A stretch of 32,000 bases of DNA from Crocosphaera subtropica ATCC 51142 (lineage in GTDB: Bacteria > Cyanobacteriota > Cyanobacteriia > Cyanobacteriales > Microcystaceae): the NCBI RefSeq assembly GCF_000017845.1, contig NC_010546.1:2040001-2072000 (forward strand). Direction: 5' to 3'. Position numbers and translations under genes: made by a program. The notes beneath the pieces were generated by a model that was given only the letters and a program-made list of their open reading frames with translations, had not been told where the DNA came from and did no database searches. Numbering within the stretch: position 1 is the first letter of the stretch; each line of letters starts with the position of its first letter. Positions 4,880 to 24,047 of this stretch are shown here, piece after piece.

Positions 4880-5169
4880 TTTTGTTATCTCCTGTTAGAT
4901 ATTGTTTCGTTGCTTTACGATAGGGAATAATTATTTTAAGTAAAGATTCCTGTTGAATCTTCTACATAAGGAATAAGATAAGCATAATTATTTATTTTAA
5001 CAATCATCATTCTTTGATTCGGATATTTAGAGGAATTGGGGTGAATCAAATCATAGAGAATATCACCTTTTTTTATGGTTTGATGATCATTTCAAATGAT
5101 ACCCCTCTCTCTATTTTTAATATTTCATTTTTCTCCTTATTCCATTTAATTCGTTTTAATTCGTTTCAT
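4866..5169 (-). pseudogene. BrnT (DUF497)-like toxin, disrupted
   Basis: Reverse-strand conceptual translation across three frames gives MKRIKWNKEKNEILKIERGVSFEMIIKP / IKKGDILYDLIHPNSSKYPNQRMMIVKINNYAYLIPYVEDSTGIF / LKIIIPYRKATKQYL. Lesions are a perfect 10-bp tandem duplication (TTAATTCGTT at 5146-5155 and 5156-5165), a shift at an A7 run and a 1-nt shift near GIF. The last frame overlaps the antitoxin start by 14 nt. Confidence 0.55.
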
Positions 5170-5194
5170 TCGTTATTATTGTATTTGCTGATTA

Positions 5195-6064
5195 TTAATC
5201 GTCTTTGAGTAACCAAAAACCACTAAATGTCTCTACATCGGGACGAGATTGAATAGCGAGAAAATGCACCCCATTTGCTTTATTTTTGCTCTGTTCAAAC
5301 CCTTCGGCTTCTGTTACACTACTTTTATCGGTTAGATTCGCTAAAATCCAATTATCACTTAAGCCAGTTTCGAGGCAAAGGTTAGGAAACGGTTTGGTCT
5401 GAAACTTAAGAGAAACCAACTCTAACCCGGACATCCAACCAGCTAAGGGTAAAGCACGTCGAGAAAAGATGATAAACCCTGGTATTTTCGTGTCAGGGGA
5501 AAGATTAGCTAATTCTAAGGGAAACCCTTCCCCAAAGCGAATATCCCACTCCTTCATGTCTGCAAACCCTGACGCTTCGAGACTGACAAAGGCCCATTTA
5601 TCGGACTTATCCCCTCTCACTGCATCCGGTAAAGCGATCGCATCTAGGGGAGGATAAGCGACAGATGCGTTAGTAGCGGCTTTTTCATCATAACCCTCTT
5701 GAGAGGGATAAAAGTCTTGAAACCGTTGATTTATCCAATGGTTGAGGGTATAGGTGCGACGACTGGGAGACGCGACGAGTCCGGCATCTTCGCAAGCTTT
5801 TACAATCATATTATTCATCTGACGACGAAAAAAGCGGATTTTACTGGGGGTTTCTCCTGCTTTCTCGATGGCAGTTTCTAATGCTTCTCGTAACCAGATG
5901 GAGTTAACTGTACTAGGAGGACAAAATTCAGCATAACGAAACCCTTTATCTAAGGACTCTGTGGTATCTGTCTGGGTTTCACAGATCAAGACTTCCCATT
6001 GTTTTTTGTTATTTTCGTCTAAAATTGGTCGTGAATAAAAATCGAGTTCCCAAACTTTGCCCAT
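5195..6064 (-). CDS. Tab2-family RNA-binding protein (DUF1092)
   Basis: 289 aa. The N-terminus (WELDFYSRPILDENNKKQWEVLICE) is the hallmark of cyanobacterial Tab2/ATAB2 homologues. Confidence 0.85.
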   Translation of the reverse strand: MGKVWELDFYSRPILDENNKKQWEVLICETQTDTTESLDKGFRYAEFCPPSTVNSIWLREALETAIEKAGETPSKIRFFRRQMNNMIVKACEDAGLVASPSRRTYTLNHWINQRFQDFYPSQEGYDEKAATNASVAYPPLDAIALPDAVRGDKSDKWAFVSLEASGFADMKEWDIRFGEGFPLELANLSPDTKIPGFIIFSRRALPLAGWMSGLELVSLKFQTKPFPNLCLETGLSDNWILANLTDKSSVTEAEGFEQSKNKANGVHFLAIQSRPDVETFSGFWLLKDD

Positions 6065-6240
6065 GATTTACCCTTAATGGTTGATCAGATCATATTTTAT
6101 CAGATTAGTAAATTAAAAAATATTTATTATTTCAATTATTACTAGATTTAAACTTTATCTAAACTGATAAACCTTTTATTATTATATATTAAAAGTAGGC
6201 CGATGCACTGCCCACCTTACACGGCTAGAATAGTTTAACT

Positions 6241-7497
6241 ATGGAAACTAATGAACCTATTACCAATGAATCTAAAACCATAAGTATAAGTGATTTGAAA
6301 TCTTTTACGATTCGTGGATTATTTGGTTATAAAGATATTGTTCTACCATTGGATAAAGAAGTTTTGATTTTAATTGCTGAAAATGGGGCAGGAAAAACGA
6401 ATATTCTCAATATTTTATATCAAGTTTTAAGTTTAGATATAAATATAACTAAGTCATTAAAATTTAATTCTATCTGTATTCAATTTAATAATTATAAAAA
6501 ATGTGAATTGGATTTTACTGAAATTGATCAGGAAGCATTGAAAAAATTAATTAAACCCAATGATTTGTTCGTTGTGATGGATATTATAGGTTCAGAAAAC
6601 AGGGAAAAAATAGAAAAAGAAGAAAAAATAATTAGTCAGTTTGAAATAAATTGGCAGGAAATTCAAAAGATAGATTTTAATACTTTATATTTTCCGACTT
6701 ATCGAAGAATAGAAGAAGATTTATCTAACCTTGGATATGAAAATCCTAAGCGTAACTATAATAATACAACCACATTAATTAAATTTGGAATGGAAGACGT
6801 TAAAAAGGAATTTAAGGAAATACAAACAGAAATTAAGAATACTGCATTTGAATTATTTTCAAGAGTTACAGGGGAAATGTTGACTCACTTTATTGAAGGA
6901 TTAAATGTAACGCAAGAAATGAGAGAAAGTATTAATATTGATATTTTGAATTTAATTTTAAGTCGTGTTGGAGAAAAAAATATTTCTAAAATAGAACAGG
7001 AAAAAATGAAAGAGTTAGTTATTTCGGGACAAATTAATGAACCTAAGTATGATGATTTAGTTTACTTCTTATCTAAACTAATTAATCTCTACCAAGATCA
7101 AAAAACAATAGACGAAACTATTAAATCTTTTGTCAATGTCTGCAATAAATACCTAAATCCCAGTAAAAAAATTATTTATGATGAGTCAATAGCAGAAATC
7201 TATATTAAACAAACTAGAAACAATGAAATCATAGAATTAAATCACTTATCTTCTGGAGAAAAACAAATCATTTCTTTATTCTCTAAAGTTTATCTAGAAG
7301 CAGAAGAAGACTTTATCTTAATTATTGATGAACCTGAATTATCTATATCCGTTGAATGGCAACAGATGCTACTTCCTGATATTATGAAATCAGGTAAATG
7401 TAAACGACTGATTGCAGCGACTCATTCTCCTTTTATTTTTGATAATGAATTAGATCATTGTGCTTACGCTTTAAGTCAATTTGTAACTGAACATTAA
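6241..7497 (+). CDS. ABC/SMC-type ATPase, AriA-like partner of a DUF4435 nuclease
   Basis: 418 aa with Walker A (LIAENGAGKTNIL), an ABC signature-like motif (LSSGEKQIISL), Walker B (FILIIDEPELS) and an H-loop (IAATHSPFIF). A long Lys/Glu-rich helical insert separates the two ATPase lobes. Very AT-rich. Confidence 0.8.
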   Translation: METNEPITNESKTISISDLKSFTIRGLFGYKDIVLPLDKEVLILIAENGAGKTNILNILYQVLSLDINITKSLKFNSICIQFNNYKKCELDFTEIDQEALKKLIKPNDLFVVMDIIGSENREKIEKEEKIISQFEINWQEIQKIDFNTLYFPTYRRIEEDLSNLGYENPKRNYNNTTTLIKFGMEDVKKEFKEIQTEIKNTAFELFSRVTGEMLTHFIEGLNVTQEMRESINIDILNLILSRVGEKNISKIEQEKMKELVISGQINEPKYDDLVYFLSKLINLYQDQKTIDETIKSFVNVCNKYLNPSKKIIYDESIAEIYIKQTRNNEIIELNHLSSGEKQIISLFSKVYLEAEEDFILIIDEPELSISVEWQQMLLPDIMKSGKCKRLIAATHSPFIFDNELDHCAYALSQFVTEH

Positions 7498-7503
7498 TTT
7501 TAA

Positions 7504-8460
7504 ATGGCAAATAATCCCGATCAATTAAGAGATTTTAGAGGTAAAGCGACGGTTGCTTTTACTTTATTTACAAGACAATACGAAAAAAATAAATTAGCTT
7601 TGTTTTGCTTCTTTGAGGGAAAAGATGATAGTAAATATTACAGTGTGAGAATTGATTTAATTGTCAAACCAATAGATGATAATTATTTTCCCTGTGGTAA
7701 AAAGTCAGAAGTTTTAAGAACTCATTCTTTAATTACTGAGCAAGAATATTATAATCATGCTAAAACAGCTTATTTTATTGATAAAGATTTTGATGAGTCT
7801 ATCTATAAAACTTTAGATGCTGATAATGCAAGTAAAATTTATGAAACCCCTTGTTATTCTATTGAAAATTTTTATACATCGAGTTATTGTTTTAAACGAA
7901 TTCTTAGAAGTGAATTTACTATTGATGAAATAGATGATAATTTTGATACCTGTTTAGACTTATATGAAAATAGACAAAATGAATTCCATGAAAAAGTTGG
8001 ATTATTGAATGCTTATATTGCTTGTTTAATGAAAAAAGATGAGCAAGAAAAACTTGATTTAAAAAGTAAACACAATAAATTAATGAAATGGTTTATTATA
8101 GAATTAGATAAAATAAAATCAAACTATAATCTTGAAACTTTAAATAATGAATTTTCGCCCAAAAATAATCCTTCACAGCAAGACATTAATAAAGAACTTA
8201 ATTACTTAAGATCCCAAGATTGTCAAAAAAGTTTTCGAGGAAAATTTGAAATAGAATTTTTACGTAAATTTTTAGAAAAACTAAAAGAAGAAGCTAATAA
8301 AAAAAAAGATCAACAAATCTATTTTTCCAAGAAACTAACTGTTTCATTATTGTTGAGTAACGATAATATTCTCTCTCAGTTATCTCAATATGCAGATACT
8401 CCTGATTGTTTGGTCAAATATCTAGAACAATTTAAAGAAAACGTCAATACAAATCAATAA
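7504..8460 (+). CDS. DUF4435/Toprim-like nuclease, AriB-like
   Basis: 318 aa, starting 6 nt after the ATPase stop. Acidic motifs occur in DUF4435/Toprim order: FFEGKDDSKYYS (E38), CGKK, FIDKDFD (D93/D95/D97) and YSIENFY (E121). Confidence 0.8.
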   Translation: MANNPDQLRDFRGKATVAFTLFTRQYEKNKLALFCFFEGKDDSKYYSVRIDLIVKPIDDNYFPCGKKSEVLRTHSLITEQEYYNHAKTAYFIDKDFDESIYKTLDADNASKIYETPCYSIENFYTSSYCFKRILRSEFTIDEIDDNFDTCLDLYENRQNEFHEKVGLLNAYIACLMKKDEQEKLDLKSKHNKLMKWFIIELDKIKSNYNLETLNNEFSPKNNPSQQDINKELNYLRSQDCQKSFRGKFEIEFLRKFLEKLKEEANKKKDQQIYFSKKLTVSLLLSNDNILSQLSQYADTPDCLVKYLEQFKENVNTNQ

Positions 8461-8706
8461 AAAACAATCAAAATCAACAATAAGAGAAATAGATTAAAAG
8501 AAGATAACAAAATAGAAAAAAATCTAGGTTACAGTACCCAAAATAAGGTAAATTAAAGGTGGAATGTTGCTCTATTTAAGGTAAAGAGTTTGATAAAAAA
8601 GTAGAGAGTTTGATTAATTTTTGTAAATGAGTTGAAACCCTTAATAAGCGTCACTTCCGACTTATAATCATAAAGATTACATAAACCTTTGTTGAGGTCT
8701 ATCGTT

Positions 8707-10686
8707 ATGGTTGCATCCTCCGAAAAAAATAACATTGAATCTGTCTTACAAGAAAAACGGGTTTTTAACCCTCCGGCTGACTTTGCTACCAACGCACATA
8801 TCAAAAGTCTTCAACAATATGAAGAACTATATGAGAAGGCCAAAAACGATCCCGAAACCTTTTGGGCAGAACTAGCAGAACAAGAATTATATTGGTTCGA
8901 GAAATGGGATCAAGTTCTAGACTGGAACCCCCCCACCGCCAAATGGTTTGTTAATGGCAAACTGAATATGTCCTATAACTGCCTCGATCGCCATCTTACC
9001 ACTTGGCGACGCAACAAAGCAGCTATTATCTGGGAAGGAGAACCCGGCGACTCTCGCACCCTCACCTACGGGGAACTACACCGAGAAGTGTGTCAGTTTG
9101 CCAATGTGTTGAAAGACATGGGAGTGCAAAAAGGCGATCGCGTGGGTATTTATATGCCGATGGTTCCCGAAGCTGCGATCGCTATGTTAGCCTGTACTCG
9201 GATCGGTGCGCCCCATAGTGTCGTATTTGGTGGGTTTAGTGCCGAAGCATTACGCGATCGCTTAGAAGATGCAGAGGCTAAAGTTGTCATTACTGCGGAT
9301 GGGGGGTTTCGCAAAGATAAGATCGTTCCCCTGAAAATAGAAGTGGATCAAGCCCTCGAAAATGGGGCTTCTAGCGTCGAAAAAGTGATCGTTGTACAAC
9401 GGACCAAACAAGATGTTACCATGCGCGAAGGACGTGATTATTGGTGGCACGATCTCCAAAAAGATGCCTCTCCTAAATGCGATGCAGAAGTAATGGATAG
9501 CGAAGATCCCCTATTCATTCTCTATACCAGTGGTAGTACAGGAAAACCTAAAGGGGTTGTCCATACCACCGGCGGTTATAACCTTTATACCCACATGACC
9601 ACAAAATGGATCTTTGATCTCAAAGACACCGATGTTTATTGGTGTACTGCCGATGTGGGTTGGATCACGGGACACAGTTACATTGTTTATGGTCCTCTTT
9701 CTAATGGTGCAACATCTTTGATGTATGAAGGGGTTCCTCGTCCCTCTAACCCTGGTTGTTTTTGGGATGTGGTAGAAAAATACGGGGTCAATGTCTTTTA
9801 TACTGCACCTACAGCTATCCGTGCATTTATGAAGATGGGAGAAGAATTACCCAACGCCAGGGATCTCTCATCCTTGCGTTTGTTGGGAACCGTCGGGGAA
9901 CCCATCAACCCCGAAGCTTGGATGTGGTATCACCGAGTTATTGGGGGTGAAAAATGTCCTATCGTTGATACTTGGTGGCAAACCGAAACCGGTGGGATCA
10001 TGATTACACCGTTACCTGGGGCCACACCCACCAAACCGGGATCAGCGACTCGTCCTTTCCCTGGTATTATTGCCGATGTGGTGGACAAAGACGGGAACCC
10101 CGTTCCCAACAATGCCGGAGGATATCTCGTTATTAAACATCCCTGGCCCAGTATGTTACGCACTGTTTATAATAACCCTGAACGCTTCCAAAAGACCTAT
10201 TGGGACCCCATTCCTGAAGTTGAAGGGAAACCGGTCTATTTCGCTGGTGATAGTGCGCGGAAGGATGAAAACGGCTATTTTTGGATTATGGGCCGCACCG
10301 ATGACGTGATGAATGTCTCCGGACACCGTTTGGGTTCAATGGAGTTAGAGTCTGCGTTAGTGTCTCATCCTGCAGTTGCTGAAGCGTCTGTGGTTGGGGT
10401 TCCCCATGAGATCAAAGGGGAAGATATTTATGCTTTTGTTACCTTGAAGGATAATTATAGCCCCAGTGACGAGTTAAATAAGGAGTTAAAACAGCACGTC
10501 GTAACTAAAATTAGTGCGATCGCTCGTCCGGGTACTATACAGTTTGCTGAAGCATTACCTAAAACGCGATCGGGTAAAATTGTACGGCGTTTCTTACGTC
10601 AAATAGCTGCCGGTCAAGATATTGTAGGAGATAAGTCTACGGTAGTTGATCCAAGTGTTTTGGATCAGTTGAGAGAGAAGGGTTAA
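8707..10686 (+). CDS. acs: Acetyl-CoA synthetase (acetate-CoA ligase)
   Basis: Motifs include [31 protein letters not shown], the AMP-binding motif [18 protein letters not shown] and [12 protein letters not shown] prefer ATG 8707 (MVASSEKNN...) to the TTG at 8689 used by the ORF track. Confidence 0.95.
9134..9141. repeat. HIP1 octamer GCGATCGC (representative copy)
   Basis: Exact GCGATCGC also read at 207, 438, 2771, 3782, 5634, 9175, 9254, 10516, 13489 and 26651 (start positions). None lies within 6065-8690 and only one within 10690-13850. Confidence 0.9.
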
Positions 10687-10697
10687 TTGTTAGTTTA

Positions 10698-10719
10698 GGG
10701 TGGGCTTTTTTAGCTCACC
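10698..10719 (+). terminator. Imperfect hairpin after acs (GGGTGGGC-loop-GCTCACC), a degenerate member of the GGTGGGCA/TGCCCACC palindrome family
   Basis: GGGTGGGC at 10698-10705, a TTTTTTA loop, then GCTCACC at 10713-10719, 12 nt after the acs stop. No clean downstream T-run. Confidence 0.35.
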
Positions 10720-10765
10720 TTATTCGTCTAAATCTTATTCCCATCAAGTTATAGTAATTTTTCTA

Positions 10766-10942
10766 ATGCCAACTCACGAACAACTAGAAGGACTTTATCG
10801 AATTTGTTATTATTTAACTTATCGAGCTTTACAACCCATACATCTCATTTGTACCGATGAAAGAACAGGTAATCTGTTTATTTTGGCAGGAGATAAGGAA
10901 AATATCGAAATTGAAATAACCCCTAATGGAGAGGTAATTTAA
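10766..10942 (+). CDS. DUF6888-like small protein
   Basis: 58 aa from ATG 10766 (MPTHEQLEGLYRICYYLTYRALQPIHLICTDERTGNLFILAGDKENIEIEITPNGEVI), resembling the cyanobacterial DUF6888 family. The track's 10700 start lies inside the acs hairpin. Its TAA stop overlaps the next ATG (TAATG at 10940-10944). Confidence 0.6.
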   Translation: MPTHEQLEGLYRICYYLTYRALQPIHLICTDERTGNLFILAGDKENIEIEITPNGEVI

Positions 10943-11157
10943 TGTCAGAGATTAATTATGATCAAATGTCAGACCAAGAACTTAGACAATATTTCTTAGA
11001 ACATAAAAATGATCAACCTGCTTTACAAGCATATTTGCAAAGACGAAATAAACAACGGAGACAAGTTATTACAAAAGTTGGTGATCCTGATTTTGATTTG
11101 AAGATAGAAAAGGCAATTAAATCAAAATTAGAAAGCCGTATCAATAGACAATTATAA
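10942..11157 (+). CDS. DUF6887-like small protein
   Basis: 71 aa. The N-terminus (INYDQMSDQELRQYFLEHKNDQPALQAYLQR) is typical of the cyanobacterial DUF6887 family that pairs with DUF6888. Confidence 0.65.
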   Translation: MSEINYDQMSDQELRQYFLEHKNDQPALQAYLQRRNKQRRQVITKVGDPDFDLKIEKAIKSKLESRINRQL

Positions 11158-11179
11158 AATCAGGGTAAAATAAATAATA

Positions 11180-12859
11180 ATGAAGCCTAAAGTTTGGATT
11201 GAAAAAATAAAATTTAGTGATGATTCAGAAGTTACTTTTGACTCTAATCAGATTGTCGTATTTGTTGGACCTAACAATGTAGGAAAAAGTGCATCATTGA
11301 AAGAGTTAAATATTTTAACGAGAAGTAATCATAAGAATGGAAAAGTTATTAAAGACTTCAGGTTACAAAAAGAAGGTAGCATAGACTATTTAGTAGAATA
11401 TCTTGAAAAATTTTCAATGAAAGAATTTTCAAATAATCCTGAACCTCACTATAAAGGTTATAGATTTAATGTATATAAAGGTAATTGTCGTAGTTGGTGG
11501 AGTATGAATAATCAACTTTTAGATTTACAACCTGTTTTTATTAACTTAATTAAAACTGAAGATAGATTAACTGCTGCAAACCCACCTAAGAATATATCAT
11601 TAACTAAAGATGCAATACAACATCCGATTCATTTTTTGCAAAAAGATGACACCATAGAAAAACAATTTAGTGACTATTTTAGACAAGCATTCGGTCAAGA
11701 TTTAATTGTTCATAGAAATGCAGGAGATCATGTTCCTTTATATATTGGTCAAAAACCCATACCTAAAGAGGGTGAAGATAGAGTATCAAGAAGTTATTTA
11801 GAAGAACTAGAAAAACTACCTTTATTACATGAACAAGGAGATGGAATGCGTAGCTTTGTTGGGGTTTTATTAAATGCTTTTATTTCTAATCATAATATTT
11901 TATTGATTGATGAACCTGAAGCATTTTTACATCCTCCTCAAGCGAGACTTTTAGGGAAAATGTTAGCCAAAGATTTACCCACTGACAGACAGTTATTTTT
12001 AGCAACTCATAGCAGTGATTTTTTAAGAGGATTATTAGAAGCACAAGTTTCTAGACTGAAAATTATTAGAATAGAAAGAGAAAAGCATATAAATAAAATT
12101 AGTGTGTTAGATAATTCAGAGATTATAGAAGTTTGGAATGATCCACTGCTAAGACATTCAAATATTTTAGATGGTTTATTTCATTCTAAAGTCATTATTT
12201 GTGAGAGTGATTCTGATTGTAGATTTTATTCCGCAATTCTACAAAGTATATATGAGAATGAATCTAACATTAGTCCCGATTTTCTCTTTGTTCATTGTGG
12301 AGGAAAACATAGAGTTAGTTCTGTAGTGAAAGCATTAAAACAATTAAATGTAAATGTTAATAGTATTTTAGATTTTGATGTTTTAAACAATCAAAACCCA
12401 TTAAAACAGATTTTTGAAGAGTTAGGAGGTGATTGGTCAATCATTGAAAAAGACTGGAAACTTGTGAAAACAAAAATAGATGAAAAAAGACCAGAACTAA
12501 CAACAGAAGATGTAAAAAAAGAGTTGAGTTTAATTCTTGAATCAACGACAGACAGAATTTTTCCTAAAAATAAAATAAAAGAAGTTGAAAATATCCTTAA
12601 AAAAGTTTCAGCATGGCAAGATGCTAAAAAAGTCGGTAAAAGTTTTATTCCTAATGGTGATCCAACTCAAGCTTATCAAAGATTAATTGTAGAATTAGAA
12701 CAAGTAGGATTAATGATTGTAGAAGTAGGAGAACTGGAAAGCTTTGTAAGATCAATTGGAAATCATGGGCCAAAATGGGTTAATGAAGTATTATATAAAG
12801 ACTTCGCTAATGATCCTGAATTACATGATGCAAGAGAATTTGTTAAAAAATTAATTTAG
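11180..12859 (+). CDS. Fused ABC-type ATPase + DUF4435/Toprim-like nuclease (OLD-family / merged-PARIS-like)
   Basis: 559 aa. The N-terminal half has Walker A (FVGPNNVGKSASL), a signature-like motif (QGDGMRSFVGVL), Walker B (ILLIDEPEAFLHPPQ) and an H-loop (LATHSSDF). The C-terminal half has ICESDSDCRFYS (E342), HCGGK, ILDFDV (D398/D400) and WSIIEKDW (E423), the same order as in the separate 318-aa ORF at 7504-8460. Confidence 0.8.
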   Translation: MKPKVWIEKIKFSDDSEVTFDSNQIVVFVGPNNVGKSASLKELNILTRSNHKNGKVIKDFRLQKEGSIDYLVEYLEKFSMKEFSNNPEPHYKGYRFNVYKGNCRSWWSMNNQLLDLQPVFINLIKTEDRLTAANPPKNISLTKDAIQHPIHFLQKDDTIEKQFSDYFRQAFGQDLIVHRNAGDHVPLYIGQKPIPKEGEDRVSRSYLEELEKLPLLHEQGDGMRSFVGVLLNAFISNHNILLIDEPEAFLHPPQARLLGKMLAKDLPTDRQLFLATHSSDFLRGLLEAQVSRLKIIRIEREKHINKISVLDNSEIIEVWNDPLLRHSNILDGLFHSKVIICESDSDCRFYSAILQSIYENESNISPDFLFVHCGGKHRVSSVVKALKQLNVNVNSILDFDVLNNQNPLKQIFEELGGDWSIIEKDWKLVKTKIDEKRPELTTEDVKKELSLILESTTDRIFPKNKIKEVENILKKVSAWQDAKKVGKSFIPNGDPTQAYQRLIVELEQVGLMIVEVGELESFVRSIGNHGPKWVNEVLYKDFANDPELHDAREFVKKLI

Positions 12860-12862
12860 TGT

Positions 12863-12877
12863 GATCTCGAAGAGATC
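12863..12877 (+). terminator. Short hairpin 4 nt after the ATPase-nuclease stop
   Basis: GATCTC-GAA-GAGATC (12863-12877), followed by CACTTT and a second T-run at 12893-12897. Weak. Confidence 0.3.
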
Positions 12878-12921: not shown

Positions 12922-13332
12922 ATGCACCAACTTGCTGTTATTATTTTAAACTATTTTAGTTCACCTGATAAAATTAATAAGGAGAAGACTATTATCGTTA
13001 ATCTACTGCCTTATGTTGATAATGCTAAGGTTGATATTCGTAAACTGCGTGATTATTGTCTTAATCCCGATCATGATGATGGTAAGCACAAAGCTCATTT
13101 ATTTTCGTCAATTTTAGGGATGACTGCTGATAATGCCGAAGAATTACGTCAAATTATTTTTAAGATGATCAAAACCCATGAAGCTAAATTAGGACGAAAG
13201 GATAAATATGGTCAACGTTACACGGTAGATTTTACACTTAAATGGCAAAACAAAAGTGCAATAATTAGAACAGGTTGGATTATCGAAAATCATTCTAAAA
13301 TTCCGAAATTAACTACTTGCTATCCCCTTTAA
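12922..13332 (+). CDS. DUF6883-like protein (putative toxin-like partner of DUF4926)
   Basis: The conserved core (VDIRKLRDYCLNPDHDDGKHKAHLFSSILGMTADNAEELRQII...YGQRYTVDF...WIIENHSKIPKLTTCYPL) matches the DUF6883 family as I remember it. The true start is uncertain: an AAGGAG at 12979-12984 precedes an in-frame ATT at 12991, while ATG 12922 has no Shine-Dalgarno sequence. Confidence 0.65.
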   Translation: MHQLAVIILNYFSSPDKINKEKTIIVNLLPYVDNAKVDIRKLRDYCLNPDHDDGKHKAHLFSSILGMTADNAEELRQIIFKMIKTHEAKLGRKDKYGQRYTVDFTLKWQNKSAIIRTGWIIENHSKIPKLTTCYPL

Positions 13333-13352
13333 TTTTTTGGAGGTCAAATAAA

Positions 13353-13607
13353 ATGAAAACTGATAAAGTAAAATTGCTTGATGTAGTTGCCTTAACGGTT
13401 GATATTCCTGAAGATAAACTATTTAAAGGTCAAGTCGGTACAGTTGTTGATATTTTAGCCGATGGAACAGCGTATGAAGTTGAATTTAGCGATCGCAATG
13501 GACGAACTTACGAATCTCTTGGACTCAGTGCTGACCAATTTATGATATTACACTTTGAGCCAATTAACCCTAATTCAACCTCAGAAATGATTACCACCAA
13601 AGTATAA
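13353..13607 (+). CDS. DUF4926-like small protein
   Basis: 84 aa from ATG 13353, preceded by GGAGG at 13339-13343. LLDVVALTVDIPEDKLFKGQVGTVVDILADGTAYEVEFSDRNGRTYESLGLSADQFMILH is typical of DUF4926. Contains the only HIP1 site of this insert. Confidence 0.8.
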   Translation: MKTDKVKLLDVVALTVDIPEDKLFKGQVGTVVDILADGTAYEVEFSDRNGRTYESLGLSADQFMILHFEPINPNSTSEMITTKV

Positions 13608-13629
13608 TGTTTTATAAAAGAGTTAAAAA

Positions 13630-15547: not shown

Positions 15548-16129
15548 ATGGTAATTGATGTACAGAAAAAAACAAAATTCTATACTCCTGAAGAATATTT
15601 AAAGTTAGAAGCTGATGCTCAACAACGACATCATTATATTAAAGGAGAAATCATTGAAATGGCTGGCGGTACTCCTAATCATAATAAGATAGCATTAAAC
15701 TTAAGTAGTGCTTTAAACTTTGCCTTTAAAGGTAAACCATTAGATATTTTTATGACAGATCAAAGGTTATGGATTCCTTCAGAAAAAATCTACACTTATC
15801 CTGATATAATGGTAGTTGAGCAACCTTTAAACTATGCTCAAAATCGCAATGATACTTTAATTAATCCTTTGCTCATTGTTGAAGTGTTATCTACGTCAAC
15901 AAGGAATTATGATAAAGACGAAAAATTTGCAGCTTATCGGACTATTTCTAGTTTTCAAGAATATATTTTAATTGATCAAAATTGTATCCATATTGAACAA
16001 TATATCCGACAAGACTCGAATAAATGGACGTTTATTGAATACAATAATTCTACGGATACTTTAATCCTATCTTCGGTTAATTTTGAAATCGAACTTGTTG
16101 ATATTTACGATAAAGTCAATTTAAGCTAA
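15548..16129 (+). CDS. Uma2-family endonuclease (DUF820)
   Basis: 193 aa with YTPEEYLKLEADAQQRHHYIKGEIIEMAGGTPNHNKIALNL, YPDIMVV, LIVEVLSTST and KFAAYRTI, the restriction-endonuclease-like fold typical of cyanobacterial Uma2. Confidence 0.85.
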   Translation: MVIDVQKKTKFYTPEEYLKLEADAQQRHHYIKGEIIEMAGGTPNHNKIALNLSSALNFAFKGKPLDIFMTDQRLWIPSEKIYTYPDIMVVEQPLNYAQNRNDTLINPLLIVEVLSTSTRNYDKDEKFAAYRTISSFQEYILIDQNCIHIEQYIRQDSNKWTFIEYNNSTDTLILSSVNFEIELVDIYDKVNLS

Positions 16130-20294: not shown

Positions 20295-23200
20295 TTAGTC
20301 CCATTGACTGTAAATAGAATTTGAGCAACTCCAAGTTGGGGGGTTTCTTAGCCAGTTTTCTACTTCTGAAGCAGGTAAAGGTTTAGCAAATAAGTAACCT
20401 TGTCCTTGTTCACAGCCTAAGCGTCGTAGTTGAGCTAATTGTAATTCAGTTTCTACTCCTTCTGCAATAATATCTAATCCTAAAATATGGGCTAAACTAA
20501 CAATAGCTCGCACAATTTCTGCGTTTTCATTATCGGGTTCCATCCGCATAACAAAAGAGCGATCAATTTTTAAGGTATTAACAGGAAAACGATGTAAATA
20601 ACTCAGGGAAGAATATCCAGTTCCAAAATCATCTAAACAAATTTCAATATCCCGTTCCTGTATCTTTAATAAAATCTCTGTTGCCGCTTGTAAATTTTCC
20701 ATTAATAGGGTTTCTGTAATTTCCAGTTTTAAATTTTTACTATCCAATTGAGTATCTCTTAATATCTGATCAATGGTATCAATTAAGTTCGTATATTTTA
20801 ATTGTTTACTTGATAAATTAACCGCAACTTTTAGATGAGAATAATGAGGGAATTGATTTTGCCATTTTTTTAGTTGCTGACACGCTTCTTTTAATGTCCA
20901 TTCGCCGATGGGGATAATTAATCCTGTTTCTTCGGCAATGGGAATAAACTGACCTGGAGAAATTAAATTTTTCTGAGGATGATACCAACGAATTAAGGCT
21001 TCAAATCCCGTTAAATGCCCTGTTTTTAAAGAAATAATTGGCTGATAATATAAACAAAATTCTTGTTTATTGATCCCTATTCTTAAATCAGTTTCTAACT
21101 GCAAACGACTAACGGCTCGTTCGTGCATTTTATGATCAAAAATAGCATAACAGGCTTTACCATCGGCTTTAGCACGGTACATGGCTGTATCTGCATCTCG
21201 TAAAATTTCAGCAGCTTCTTGATAACCTGAACTGTTTAAAGCAATCCCAATGCTAGTATTAATAAAGATATTTTGGTCTTCTAAAATAAAGGGTTGTGTT
21301 AAATCTAAATGGATACGTTTAGCGATTTTAATTGCATCTTTGATGTCTTCAATATCTTCTAATAAAATGGTAAATTCATCCCCCCCTAACCTAGCTAATG
21401 TATCATCACTGCGTAAGCCATTTTGAAGTCGAAGGGCAATTTCTTGTAATAATTGATCGCCAATGGCATGACCTAAACTATCATTAATAACTTTAAATTC
21501 ATCGAGATCCAAAAAGAGAACAGCAAAGATAAACTTAGGATGCCGTTTTTGTCTTTCTATGGCGTGTTCTAGACGATCCATAAATAAAATTCGGTTCGGC
21601 AAATTGGTCAAGGGATCGTGGGTAGCATTATATTGTAGTTGTTCTTCTGCTCGTTTTTGTTCAGTGATATCGCTATCAATACCATCAATACGAATTAAAT
21701 TGTTTTTGTCGTTATAAACGCAGCGCATTCGACTCGATAACCAGCGAATTTTATCATTGTTTCTGATAATACGGTATTTATATTCTGTGTAACCAATTTC
21801 TTTAACAATTTGACGATGATATTGAACTAATTCTTGATCTTCAGGATGAATTAATTGCAACCAAAGATGAGGATTATCATACAATTTTTCTAAGGAAAAA
21901 CCCAGGGTCATTTGAGCAACAGGATTAATATAAATTAATTTAGAAAAATTAGCATCAAAAGACCAAACTACATCTTGAATGGAGTTTAAGATTCCTTCTA
22001 ATCTTTGTTCACTTTCAGATAAGGCTTGCTCCATTTTTTTGCGTTGGCTAATATCTGTAATCATCCCTAATGATCCCAGATAATTTCCTTGATGATCAAA
22101 CAAGGGATTCGTAGAAACAATCGTCCATAATTCTTGTCCATCACGACAACGGAACTTAAAATCGTGGGTTTCAGCAATACCTTGACGACGTTGTTGAATC
22201 TTTTCTTGAACTCTTATGTTATCTTCAAAATCAACAAAATCAAATAGGTTTTTATCCATCATTTCATTCATTTCATAGCCTAACATTTTTGCCATTTGTT
22301 GATTAACAAATGTAGTTTTATTATCTTGATCAATAATCCAGATTCCTTCTGTAGCTGTCTCTACAATTTGACGATATTTTTCTTCACTTTCTAATAAAGC
22401 TTCTTGGGCTTCATAATTTTCTGTAATGTCTCTTAAAGACAGCAAATAAGCGGATTCCCCTTGCCAAGTAATATCAGCAACCCGCATTTGAGCAATAATT
22501 AATTTTCCTTGGGGTTGTTGAATAAAAATTTCAGTGAGTTGATCGTTTCCTAAGGGTAAACCTAACGGATGATCCATTAATTGCTTGGCAGAACGGCCAA
22601 ACAACTTCACTCCTGCATCATTAATAAAACGAACCTTCCCTTGTGTATTTACTACCAATAAACCATCGGAAATGGTGCTAATAATTCGCCCTAATCTTTC
22701 TTCACTTTCTTGAAGGGCAAAGGTTTGATGGGTTTGTTGAGTAATATCAATGGTTTGACCTAATAAATGTAGGGGGTTTCCTTCAATATCCCGAATCAAA
22801 GTGGCTTGGTGTAAGCCATAAATAATTTGCTTACTCTTGGTAATGTAGCGTTTCTCCAGGCTAAAACTATTAATGGTTCCTGATAGTAACTGGTTGAATA
22901 ACTTTTTTTCTTTTTCTAGATCGTCAGGATGAGTAATATCTGCACAGCCTTTTGTTAATAATTCTTCTGCACTATAGCCAACTAATTGACATAAAGCTTC
23001 GTTAACATTAATTAATTTGCCTTCCATATTGGCTAAGCCCATAGCCGTTGGGGACTTATCAAACAAAAGACGAAACTTTTCTTCACTTTTTCTTAAGGCG
23101 AGTTCGATCTTTTTCCATTCGGTAACATCCCGCGCAACGGCATAAATCTTTTTTTCTTCAATATTAGCCACAGATGTCCAAGCTAACCAACGATAGGAAC

Positions 23201-24047
23201 CATCTTGACAACGATAACGATTTTCGCAATGACAGTTTTGTTTCCCTTGGGTCAGGTTTTCTAATTCTGCTACGGTAGAGAGTTGATCGTCGGGATGGAC
23301 GAACTCCAGGAACGGTTTAGACTTTAATTCTGCTACTGAATAACCGAGAGTCCGACTAAAAACCCTATTAATGCTTTTAAAATAACCATCAAATCCTGCA
23401 ATACAGCACATTTCCAAGTTGAGGTTAAAAAAGCGATCGCTGTCAATGTTGATGATATCTGTTGCTTGATCGTTAACTGATGGTTCGGGGTTGGGTTGTA
23501 TTCGAGTAATCATCGTCCCAATTAATTGGGTAATAATTTCTAAAAAGGTACATTCTTGTGGAGTATAATCACGTTTTTGGTTACTATACACCCCTAAAAC
23601 CCCGTAAAATTTATCAGGTGTGGGAATAATGACACTAACACCACTGATGACACCATGATTGTCTAAAAAGGAGTGAGGAGGAAAAGGATTATAGCGGGTA
23701 AAATCTTCAATGATTAGGGTTTGACCCGTATTGATGGTTTGGGTCAGTTGACAGGGTTGGGTTAACGGAATAATCAGTGATCCCATTAACTCTGTTGTCC
23801 AGCCTACTCCAGCAATTAAACGTAATTCTTGGTCATTCGTCCCTTGTTTTAAAATGGCACAATAGGGAACCTTGAGACTCTCAGCAATAATGTGGGTAAC
23901 TTCTTGAAGAAGAAGATTAATGTCTTGACATTGCCAAGCAAGTTGAGCAATTTTACCTATCGCTTTATGTTGGGAAATTTGTGCTTCGACGGTGCATTCC
24001 CAGAATTTTTGATCGTTTTTGCTTTGGTATCGAAGCTTGTCTTTCAC
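20295..24047 (-). CDS. Multi-sensor c-di-GMP signalling protein: GAF + about 5 PAS/PAC + GGDEF + EAL
   Basis: 1250 aa with an N-terminal GAF-like region and repeated PAS/PAC blocks (ITERK/ITEQK/ISQRK boundary helices). The diguanylate cyclase motif is RLGGDEFTILL. The EAL domain shows FEALIRW, EITE and DDFGTGYSSLSYL. Confidence 0.92.
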   Translation of the reverse strand: MKDKLRYQSKNDQKFWECTVEAQISQHKAIGKIAQLAWQCQDINLLLQEVTHIIAESLKVPYCAILKQGTNDQELRLIAGVGWTTELMGSLIIPLTQPCQLTQTINTGQTLIIEDFTRYNPFPPHSFLDNHGVISGVSVIIPTPDKFYGVLGVYSNQKRDYTPQECTFLEIITQLIGTMITRIQPNPEPSVNDQATDIINIDSDRFFNLNLEMCCIAGFDGYFKSINRVFSRTLGYSVAELKSKPFLEFVHPDDQLSTVAELENLTQGKQNCHCENRYRCQDGSYRWLAWTSVANIEEKKIYAVARDVTEWKKIELALRKSEEKFRLLFDKSPTAMGLANMEGKLINVNEALCQLVGYSAEELLTKGCADITHPDDLEKEKKLFNQLLSGTINSFSLEKRYITKSKQIIYGLHQATLIRDIEGNPLHLLGQTIDITQQTHQTFALQESEERLGRIISTISDGLLVVNTQGKVRFINDAGVKLFGRSAKQLMDHPLGLPLGNDQLTEIFIQQPQGKLIIAQMRVADITWQGESAYLLSLRDITENYEAQEALLESEEKYRQIVETATEGIWIIDQDNKTTFVNQQMAKMLGYEMNEMMDKNLFDFVDFEDNIRVQEKIQQRRQGIAETHDFKFRCRDGQELWTIVSTNPLFDHQGNYLGSLGMITDISQRKKMEQALSESEQRLEGILNSIQDVVWSFDANFSKLIYINPVAQMTLGFSLEKLYDNPHLWLQLIHPEDQELVQYHRQIVKEIGYTEYKYRIIRNNDKIRWLSSRMRCVYNDKNNLIRIDGIDSDITEQKRAEEQLQYNATHDPLTNLPNRILFMDRLEHAIERQKRHPKFIFAVLFLDLDEFKVINDSLGHAIGDQLLQEIALRLQNGLRSDDTLARLGGDEFTILLEDIEDIKDAIKIAKRIHLDLTQPFILEDQNIFINTSIGIALNSSGYQEAAEILRDADTAMYRAKADGKACYAIFDHKMHERAVSRLQLETDLRIGINKQEFCLYYQPIISLKTGHLTGFEALIRWYHPQKNLISPGQFIPIAEETGLIIPIGEWTLKEACQQLKKWQNQFPHYSHLKVAVNLSSKQLKYTNLIDTIDQILRDTQLDSKNLKLEITETLLMENLQAATEILLKIQERDIEICLDDFGTGYSSLSYLHRFPVNTLKIDRSFVMRMEPDNENAEIVRAIVSLAHILGLDIIAEGVETELQLAQLRRLGCEQGQGYLFAKPLPASEVENWLRNPPTWSCSNSIYSQWD

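Follow-up and report, generated by a model that had tools for sequence, protein, structure and literature searches.

The locus and its OLD-family gene

We analysed a window of 32,000 nucleotides from the chromosome of Crocosphaera subtropica ATCC 51142 (formerly Cyanothece), and in particular the open reading frame (ORF) at 11180-12859, which lies on the plus strand, as do all parts of it, the PARIS pair, the DUF6888, DUF6883 and DUF4926 ORFs and the Uma2 gene described below. The ORF was confirmed: it starts with ATG and encodes 559 amino acids (aa), and its translation was 100% identical to ACB51369/WP_009545822, annotated in the databases as 'unknown' or 'AAA family ATPase'. Since homologs aligned across 100% of its length, the start codon appears to be correct. 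Our results revealed that the gene is an ordinary single-gene OLD-family ATPase-Toprim nuclease and not a fused copy of the PARIS system encoded nearby. An earlier note, made from the sequence alone, had described the product as an ABC-type ATPase fused to a Toprim domain of the DUF4435 type. All the motifs it quoted were present in the protein, from GPNNVGKS (aa 30-37) to IVEVGELESFV (aa 513-523), and the fusion of an ABC-type ATPase to a Toprim domain in a single chain, of the OLD kind, was confirmed by Pfam, PADLOC, Foldseek and a profile match to 6P74, the structure of Thermus scotoductus (Ts) OLD. The literature search for locus tags cce_2014 to cce_2019 returned no mention.

Two genes upstream, at 6241-7497 and 7504-8460 (GC content 0.257), were inserted between Tab2 and the acetyl-CoA synthetase gene acs. 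The first matched the PADLOC AriA model (4.6e-31), and the second matched Pfam DUF4435 (2e-76) and PADLOC AriB (3.3e-59). The pair at 6241-8460 is thus a genuine two-gene PARIS, consisting of an AriA-like ABC ATPase and a DUF4435/AriB Toprim protein, 3 kb upstream of the OLD gene. In Crocosphaera chwakensis, the OLD gene likewise follows acs at this chromosomal position (90% nucleotide identity across 11140-12865); the PARIS pair was absent and a 419-aa ORF on the minus strand occupied the syntenic site. As C. chwakensis has the OLD gene but neither PARIS nor the cassettes beside it, the gene is independent of both, in agreement with the earlier note, which had taken it as a second effector separate from the pair at 6241-8460.

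Relatives of the OLD gene were detected in at least 570 species when 185,579 species genomes (one genome per species) were scanned. They belonged to Cyanobacteria, Bacteroidota, Alpha-, Beta- and Gammaproteobacteria, Planctomycetota, Acidobacteriota, Bacillota, Chloroflexota, Myxococcota, Spirochaetota, Verrucomicrobiota, Nitrospinota and one lineage of the candidate phyla radiation. The relatives were 555-620 aa long, and the 559 aa of the query fall inside the ~500-600 aa of Class 1 OLD proteins, which are shorter than the Class 2 average. The gene had a GC content of 0.29 (window, 0.37; acs, 0.465), and protein identities above 60% were observed among Cyanobacteria, Bacteroidota, Latescibacterota, Gammaproteobacteria and one Woesearchaeota genome. 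The low GC content and the >60% identity across distant phyla together indicate horizontal spread of the OLD gene. A tblastn search of a phage collection (50,697 records) gave one distant match, a Mycobacterium prophage gene with 28% identity. This gene (Mycobacterium phage prophiT36-1, OQ417966.1 70020-71825), the only full-length relative in the collection, is annotated as 'AAA family ATPase' and sits in a prophage region, adjoining a helicase and a TnsA-like endonuclease gene. Scanning for promoters and terminators near the OLD gene gave no excess of sites over chance. Close relatives are already labelled 'ATP-dependent nuclease' in public databases, and, apart from the test case and the mutant map discussed below, our result is one at the annotation level.

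The ATPase half

The ABC-type ATPase region covered aa 1 to ~320 (11180-12139). As the earlier note had recognised, this half is an ABC-type ATPase: it matched Pfam AAA_21 (6.5e-16, aa 25-279) and AAA_15 (1.8e-14), both above the gathering scores, and in Foldseek the model resembled GajA, Ts OLD, and Rad50 and SMC heads. Conservation was assessed in 90 relatives that were 33-50% identical to the target and in a second alignment, A3, of 48 diverse sequences. In the Walker A motif GPNNVGKS (aa 30-37; 11267-11290), G30, N32, N33, G35 and K36 were conserved in 98-99% of the 90 relatives and in 48/48 sequences of A3, with K36 present in 89/90; the P-loop alignment suggests that K36 is the equivalent of Ts OLD K34. 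The Walker B motif and D-loop, ILLIDEPEAFLHPPQ (aa 240-254; 11897-11941), contained D244, E245, P246, L250, H251 and P252, all of which were invariant, and E247, which was conserved in 98%. In the alignment to 6P74, D244 was paired with Ts OLD E276 and H251 with H283, and E245 occupied the position of the catalytic Glu. The H-loop LATHSS (aa 274-279; 11999-12016) followed, with the invariant H277 aligned to Ts OLD H310. K36, D244, E245, H251 and H277 were all invariant in A3.

A signature-like motif, QGDG (11834-11845; within QGDGMRSF, aa 219-226), was located where the ABC signature motif is expected, and was conserved in the 90 relatives at Q219 (94%), G220 (100%), D221 (94%) and G222 (100%). 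R129 (11564-11566), conserved in 100%, is a candidate Q-loop residue that may correspond to Ts OLD H140, a position occupied by Arg in many Class 1 homologs (PMC7049728). The residues required in the Ts OLD ATPase, in Walker A, Walker B, the D-loop and the H-loop, thus all have counterparts in the target and, as judged by alignment and conservation, the ATPase half has the full set of ATP-hydrolysis residues (K36, D244/E245, H251 and H277).

Type of the Toprim domain

The first part of the Toprim core, with the order beta1-alpha1-beta2-alpha2-beta3-alpha3 in the models, was assigned to aa 333-416 (12176-12427). Pfam OLD-like_TOPRIM (PF20469) matched aa 333-400 with 27.7 bits in the full protein and with 30.8 bits (E 4.2e-7) when the C-terminal half was searched alone, against a gathering score of 23.2. 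Among 48 diverse relatives, PF20469 matched 46 and DUF4435 matched none (E <= 0.01), which does not support the DUF4435-like Toprim architecture proposed earlier. The best PADLOC model was Old (2.5e-24 with the full protein), followed by AriA, NsnB, AriAB and GajA matches, which were generic and driven by the ATPase; the PtuA models matched the Walker B region only. On the C-terminal half alone, Old (3.8e-10) ranked above GajA (7.6e-6) and AriB (2.7e-4). A search of the PDB sequences matched Ts Class 1 OLD (6P74) with an E-value of 1.2e-3 for the single sequence, 1.5e-7 for a profile of close homologs and 2.7e-13 for a diverse profile. With the diverse family profile, GajA was matched at ~1e-7 and Retron-Eco8 OLD at 7e-6, and AriA was matched in the ATPase only. 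No NCBIfam family exceeded its cut-off for the target, the retron_eff_Eco8 family giving 29.8 bits against a cut-off of 250. As the sequence profiles place it, the Toprim domain is of the OLD type and not of the DUF4435/AriB type.

The earlier note had also proposed that the C-terminal half repeats, in order, four motifs of the 318-aa AriB-like protein encoded at 7504-8460. BLASTP between the two gave nothing significant, the best E-value (0.25) lying in an unrelated region; the pairwise alignment, which the earlier note had named as a refuting test, thus goes against the proposed repeat. The Pfam DUF4435 match to the C-terminal half (E 1.2e-3; 19.1 bits) was below the gathering score of 27 and covered 66 residues (aa 340-405) and profile positions 6-69 of 238; positions 70-238, the C-terminal region of DUF4435, had no counterpart in the OLD protein. 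When a 90-sequence alignment of the C-terminal half was compared with a 120-sequence alignment of the AriB family by hhalign, P-values of 0.005-0.009 (probability 5-7%) were obtained, whether the full C-terminal half, a version with the insert deleted or a truncated version was used. The alignment paired E342/D346, GGK and DFD with E-G-K-D-D, C-G-K-K and D-K-D-F-D of AriB. The proposed correspondence therefore held for the first three motifs, at a weak profile level (E ~1e-3), and failed for the fourth. This weak signal is consistent with the shared ancestry of OLD-type Toprim domains rather than with a specific DUF4435 relationship, and specific DUF4435 homology of the C-terminal half was rejected, the hhalign result being too weak for more than shared Toprim ancestry.

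Structure prediction gave the same picture. The full-length AlphaFold2 model had a mean predicted local distance difference test score (pLDDT) of 86.9 and a predicted template modelling score (pTM) of 0.83. Its top 20 Foldseek matches in the PDB were all OLD proteins (GajA, Eco8 OLD and Ts OLD; E 1.6e-11 to 1.2e-8), followed by Rad50 and SMC heads, and the top matches in a viral structure library carried the name 'ATP-dependent endonuclease'. In the model of the C-terminal half (aa 322-559; pLDDT 77.8), which folded as Toprim as the earlier note had expected, the top seven matches were all OLD proteins or their C-terminal regions (CTRs), namely Xcc 6NJV (E 5e-3, probability 0.98) and Bp 6NK8 (probability 0.99), then Ts OLD and GajA, with marginal statistics. 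Comparison of profiles and structures with the OLD classes, GajA and AriA-AriB thus placed OLD proteins on top, and no AriB chain was found among the top 50 Foldseek matches of either model.

Nuclease residues and a predicted helical insertion

Both models showed strands at aa 337-341 (beta1), 368-372 (beta2), 392-398 (beta3) and 511-514 (beta4), the last being the sole strand that remains after beta3. Within ICESDSDCRFYS (aa 340-351), the ESDSD motif (12203-12217) contains E342 and D346, which aligned with Ts OLD E377 and D381 in the alignment to 6P74. It was followed by the GGK after beta2 (12299-12307; within HCGGK, aa 372-376), which aligned with the GGK of Ts OLD and in which K376 was 99% conserved, and by the DxD motif D398-F-D400 (12371-12379; within ILDFDV, aa 396-401), which aligned with Ts OLD D431 and D433. 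E342, D346, D398 and D400 were 100% conserved in the 90 relatives and also invariant in A3. Since the metal-site residues of Ts OLD have been validated experimentally (PMC7049728), the alignments assign metal A to E342, D398 and D400, the residues that the earlier note had singled out for mutation, and D346 to metal B.

The fourth motif fared differently. The earlier note had equated WSIIEKDW (aa 419-426) with YSIENFY of the AriB-like protein and had taken its Glu as catalytic. However, in the 90 relatives only W419 was well conserved (96%), with S420 at 30%, E423 at 44% and D425 at 56%, and hhalign, when offered the WSIIE segment, ended the alignment before it. WSIIEKDW is mostly unconserved, unlike the metal ligands, which argues against its being a metal-ligand motif; the spacing of 23-24 residues between D-x-D and this Glu is numerically correct and coincidental. 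A better candidate follows beta4 (LMIV, aa 511-514), where G517-E518-L-E520-S-F522 (12710-12745, including beta4) was conserved in the 90 relatives (G517 100%, E518 92%, E520 99% or 89/90, F522 96%). The position of G-E-L-E after beta4 corresponds to that of S478-x-E480 in Ts OLD, T506-x-E508 in Bp OLD and S-I-E in AriB (PMC7049728, PMC6755086, PMC12409363). With the insert deleted, hhalign extended its alignment through VEVGELESF, which was paired with TPCYSIENF of the AriB family; this result was weak alone and agreed with the conservation. On conservation and predicted secondary structure, E518 and E520 would complete metal B. All nuclease ligands were invariant, indicating that the nuclease is probably under selection.

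Between alpha3 and beta4, both models placed an insertion of ~90 aa and five helices (aa 419-508; 12434-12703). What had been described as a helical tail ending in IVEVGELESFV is, in the model, an insertion at about aa 419-508, followed by beta4; IVEVGELESFV occupies aa 513-523 and 36 more residues follow it. The insertion contains WSIIEKDW, conserved at W419 only, as well as three invariant residues (W479, K483 and G486). K483 (12626-12628), present in 90/90 relatives, may be the functional counterpart of Bp OLD K562, a conserved active-site Lys of the helical domain (PMC6755086). In the models, then, the Toprim domain appears to carry an undescribed helical insertion, and this is the sole unusual feature of the protein. 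As far as we are aware, leaving out of account the clade lists of two recent OLD phylogenies, no large helical bundle has been described in the Insert-3 position.

The C-terminal segment (12746-12856) contains a conserved H529-G530-P-x-W533 and helices with R552 and F554, as seen from conservation and the models. Searched alone, aa 401-559 had no Pfam and no PADLOC match. HMMER (E <= 1e-3) detected the C-terminal module in 941 clusters among 1.84 billion representatives. It was nearly always located at the C-terminus of proteins of 555-620 aa, and the shorter matches resembled fragments. This near-constant placement suggests that the module is a clade-specific part of one fixed architecture and not a mobile domain.

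Genomic context and class assignment

Upstream of the OLD gene lie acetyl-CoA synthetase (8689-10686) and an 80-aa DUF6888 ORF (10700-10942). Downstream are the overlapping DUF6883 (12922-13332) and DUF4926 (13317-13607) ORFs, then DUF2330 and Uma2. In C. chwakensis the OLD gene is flanked by a SocA_Panacea pair upstream and HicAB downstream. The slot between acs and the OLD gene appears to be variable for small cassettes, with DUF6888 here and SocA_Panacea plus a 132-aa ORF in C. chwakensis; the DUF6883/DUF4926 segment (12957-13610) is missing from C. chwakensis and resembles an inserted toxin-antitoxin-like cassette.

We compared the window with six annotated loci and with 80 further loci from many phyla. 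A UvrD-like helicase adjoining the OLD gene was found neither in the window nor in the six annotated loci, and the 80 further loci had no conserved neighbour; an HNH partner (Septu PtuB) was likewise absent from the window and the six loci. These observations support the earlier note, which had seen neither partner beside the gene. No reverse transcriptase domain was detected among the neighbours in the window and the six loci, and no tRNA gene and no Rfam match were found in the window, so no retron non-coding RNA (ncRNA) was detected there. The seven annotated contexts (the window and the six loci) were all different, the six loci sharing no neighbour, and an all-versus-all comparison of their small upstream and downstream ORFs for a hidden partner found none related. 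When the ORFs of the 80 loci were clustered, no family outside the OLD gene occurred in more than five loci. Antisense ORFs of 88-102 aa inside the OLD homologs (at ~5001-6680 on the minus strand in loci L010-L089) occurred in 19 to 51 of the 80 loci. They were rejected as conserved genes and regarded as shadow-ORF artefacts, whose recurrence most likely reflects a conserved coding sequence on the sense strand. Mobile or defence-type genes (transposases, integrases, toxin-antitoxin pairs, a type I restriction subunit or PARIS) were found near the OLD gene in five of the seven loci; four of the six loci outside the window had genes of these kinds, other than PARIS, close by.

The definition of the OLD classes rests on genomic context (PMC7049728, PMC10568477). 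The gene has neither the adjacent UvrD-like helicase of Class 2 nor the adjacent reverse transcriptase and msr/msd ncRNA of Class 3, nor the DUF4435-type Toprim of Class 4 or merged AriAB, nor the adjacent HNH nuclease PtuB of Septu. The features of the OLD family itself are present: an intact ABC ATPase, and an OLD-type Toprim with the Glu, the DxD and a second acidic cluster (E518/E520, which we infer to belong to metal B). By context, the OLD gene is Class 1, a single gene in a variable neighbourhood with no conserved partner. In both models the Toprim domain differs from that of Ts OLD, the only solved Class 1 structure, in carrying a helical insert, a trait that lies outside the class definition.

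Elsewhere in the window, a Uma2-family putative restriction endonuclease (15548-16129) matched the PADLOC candidate defence model PDC-S03 (1.6e-23), and a 1250-aa GAF-PAS(x4)-GGDEF-EAL signalling protein was encoded at 20295-24047 on the minus strand. The remaining large ORFs were housekeeping genes (MgtE, LptF/G, LptB, PMT-type glycosyltransferase and CarB).

Interpretation and alternative explanations

We consider with good confidence that the gene encodes a stand-alone OLD-family nuclease, Class 1 by genomic context. Most characterised OLD-family members defend bacteria against phages. By analogy with Ts OLD, Bp OLD, P2 Old and Vibrio cholerae (Vc) OLD, the protein would self-associate through its ATPase region. 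In OLD proteins the ABC head, by binding and hydrolysing ATP, controls the two-metal Toprim nuclease (PMC7049728, PMC6755086); in the target, ATP binding or hydrolysis would likewise license the Toprim active site, which would cut nucleic acid by two-metal catalysis. The outcome expected from the family would be that phage replication is blocked or the infected cell dies. The helical bundle with K483 probably aids substrate binding and may complete the active site, as K562 does in Class 2. The gene would act independently of the upstream PARIS pair, as an AT-rich, horizontally spread unit flanked by variable toxin-antitoxin-like cassettes.

Several points weigh against this interpretation. The OLD clade of the target is experimentally uncharacterised, and other OLD proteins have shown different behaviour: E. 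coli YbjD does not need its Toprim for its phage phenotype (PMC13261556), and the archaeal Cran1, a stand-alone OLD, acts in the cell cycle (PMC12796447). Two of the seven annotated loci (L004 and L006) have purely metabolic neighbours, and two Crocosphaera species retain the gene at one and the same chromosomal position, which also fits a host function. The Foldseek TM-scores were low (0.31-0.41 for the full-length model and 0.26-0.35 for the C-terminal half), as expected at full length for a multi-domain protein with mobile domains, and the E-values of the C-terminal half were marginal (5e-3 to 0.3). Besides, what supports the metal-B assignment and the role proposed for K483 is residue conservation together with predicted secondary structure rather than measured distances.

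A merged PARIS, in which AriA and a DUF4435/AriB Toprim form one chain whose ATPase senses the trigger and whose tRNA-cleaving Toprim is released or activated, had been brought up by the earlier note. The target does match PADLOC AriA (2e-17) and AriAB (9.1e-15), the first three Toprim motifs in its C-terminal half resemble DUF4435 (1.2e-3) and AriB (2.7e-4) below the thresholds, hhalign gave a P of 0.005-0.009, and a genuine PARIS pair lies 3 kb upstream. However, the best AriA stretch (aa 25-280) is wholly ATPase and the AriAB stretch (aa 238-389) mostly so, and the scores are therefore mainly generic ABC; on the C-terminal half the Old model beats AriB by six orders of magnitude. Considering also the DUF4435 score below gathering, with no match in the 48 relatives, the BLASTP result with the neighbouring AriB-like protein, the absence of AriB from the Foldseek top 50 and the missing counterpart of DUF4435 positions 70-238, we regard a merged PARIS as very unlikely. 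Even less credible in our opinion is an orphan Gabija GajA, that is a Class 2 OLD whose GajB helicase was lost or is encoded elsewhere. Several PADLOC GajA models matched (best 1.3e-14), GajA structures led the Foldseek results for the full-length model and the Class 2 CTRs 6njv and 6nk8 those for the C-terminal half, and extra helices in the Toprim region are found in Class 2 too. But an adjacent helicase is what defines Class 2, and no adjacent UvrD-like gene was seen in the window, the six annotated loci or the 80 further loci; the sequence is nearer to Ts Class 1 OLD (2.7e-13) than to GajA (~1e-7), and the helical bundle precedes beta4 in the model whereas it follows beta4 in Bp OLD (PMC6755086).

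The gene could also be an OLD-like ATPase with a host role in DNA repair or cell-cycle control, in which the ATPase is functional and the nuclease secondary. Cran1 (PMC12796447) and YbjD (PMC13261556) are precedents, and the syntenic site in two Crocosphaera species, the metabolic neighbours in two of the seven loci and a conservation across phyla that is unusually high for a defence gene would all fit. On the other hand, the distribution is patchy (at least 570 of 185,579 species genomes), identities above 60% between unrelated phyla indicate horizontal transfer, the GC content is atypically low, variable toxin-antitoxin cassettes, transposases and integrases flank the gene, and the nuclease ligands are all invariant. 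A host role is thus improbable.

For the stand-alone Class 1 nuclease that we favour, nicking or degradation of DNA, as by Vc and Ts OLD, is slightly preferred over cleavage of tRNA, as by P2 Old and AriB. A bolder proposal, which we put forward tentatively and with more doubt than belief, is that the relatives form an untouched stand-alone OLD clade of at least 941 clusters (50% identity), at least 570 species and more than 10 phyla, in which the Toprim is split by a ~90-aa helical domain at Insert-3 that would give K483 and W479/G486 to the active site or the substrate face. If true, a third type of architecture would stand beside those of Ts OLD, which lacks a helical domain, and of Class 2, in which that domain comes after beta4, and the clade-specific helical domain could confer on the clade its own substrate specificity or trigger. 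The clade may correspond to a member of the uncharacterised set U1-U11 in PMC12796447. Only a few stand-alone Class 1 OLD proteins have been shown to be anti-phage (P2 Old, Vc OLD and, in part, YbjD), and the literature still asks whether single OLD genes provide autonomous defence and on which substrate. A widespread, strongly conserved clade could be a further test case, with a gene 3 kb from PARIS in a cyanobacterium with few characterised defences. For the choice of mutants, the corrected catalytic map (E342/D398/D400 plus D346/E518/E520, with K483 as a candidate) is the guide, and an E423-type motif would be the wrong target.

Comparison with known systems

The best sequence match among solved structures was Ts OLD (6P74), which like the target is the product of a single gene (528 versus 559 aa) with an ABC ATPase followed by a Toprim domain. 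The residues of both halves are paired one to one (target/Ts OLD: K36/K34, D244/E276, H251/H283, H277/H310, E342/E377, D346/D381, D398/D431 and D400/D433; PMC7049728), and the sequence alignment ends at the DxD motif. However, both an Insert-3 helix and a helical domain are lacking in Ts OLD (PMC7049728), while in the target alpha3 and beta4 are predicted to be separated by ~90 additional helical residues. For metal B, the target has the putative motif E-x-E and Ts OLD S-x-E; the target has the canonical Asp at the Walker B position where Ts OLD has Glu, and a conserved signature-like QGDG motif where the signature of Ts OLD is degenerate.

Class 2 OLD proteins and GajA (Bp 6NK8, Xcc 6NJV and Bacillus cereus GajA 8SM3) were the top Foldseek matches and share with the target the extra Toprim helices and a conserved Lys that is not part of the Toprim core (Bp K562; K483 as the candidate in the target). 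They differ in the adjacent UvrD-like GajB, which was present in none of the loci examined for the target, and in the helical domain, which in Bp OLD lies after beta4, with a short Insert-3 helix in addition, and in the target before beta4 (PMC6755086, PMC7049728). No sequence similarity between the two helical regions was detectable. PARIS AriA/AriB (Class 4) also combines an ABC ATPase with a Toprim, and its E-x3-D, G-K and DxD motifs align weakly with those of the target; however, PARIS consists of two polypeptides instead of one, and DUF4435 is below threshold in the target. The local PARIS pair and the OLD gene are both AT-rich insertions in the same chromosomal region, and their presence or absence is independent in the sister species C. 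chwakensis.

P2 Old and Vc OLD, which like the target are Class 1 by context with the same domain order, both have proven anti-phage activity. They were beyond the reach of tblastn from the target, P2 being unmatched in the phage collection. P2 Old cuts tRNA anticodon stems (PMC12445682) and Vc OLD makes nicks in DNA and stops phage replication (PMC12392090); since their substrates differ, the two do not predict that of the target. Ts OLD degrades and nicks DNA in vitro. In metal B, Vc OLD uses two glutamates, different from the aspartate, glutamate and serine of Ts OLD (PMC12392090), and in this it resembles the putative E518/E520 pair of the target.

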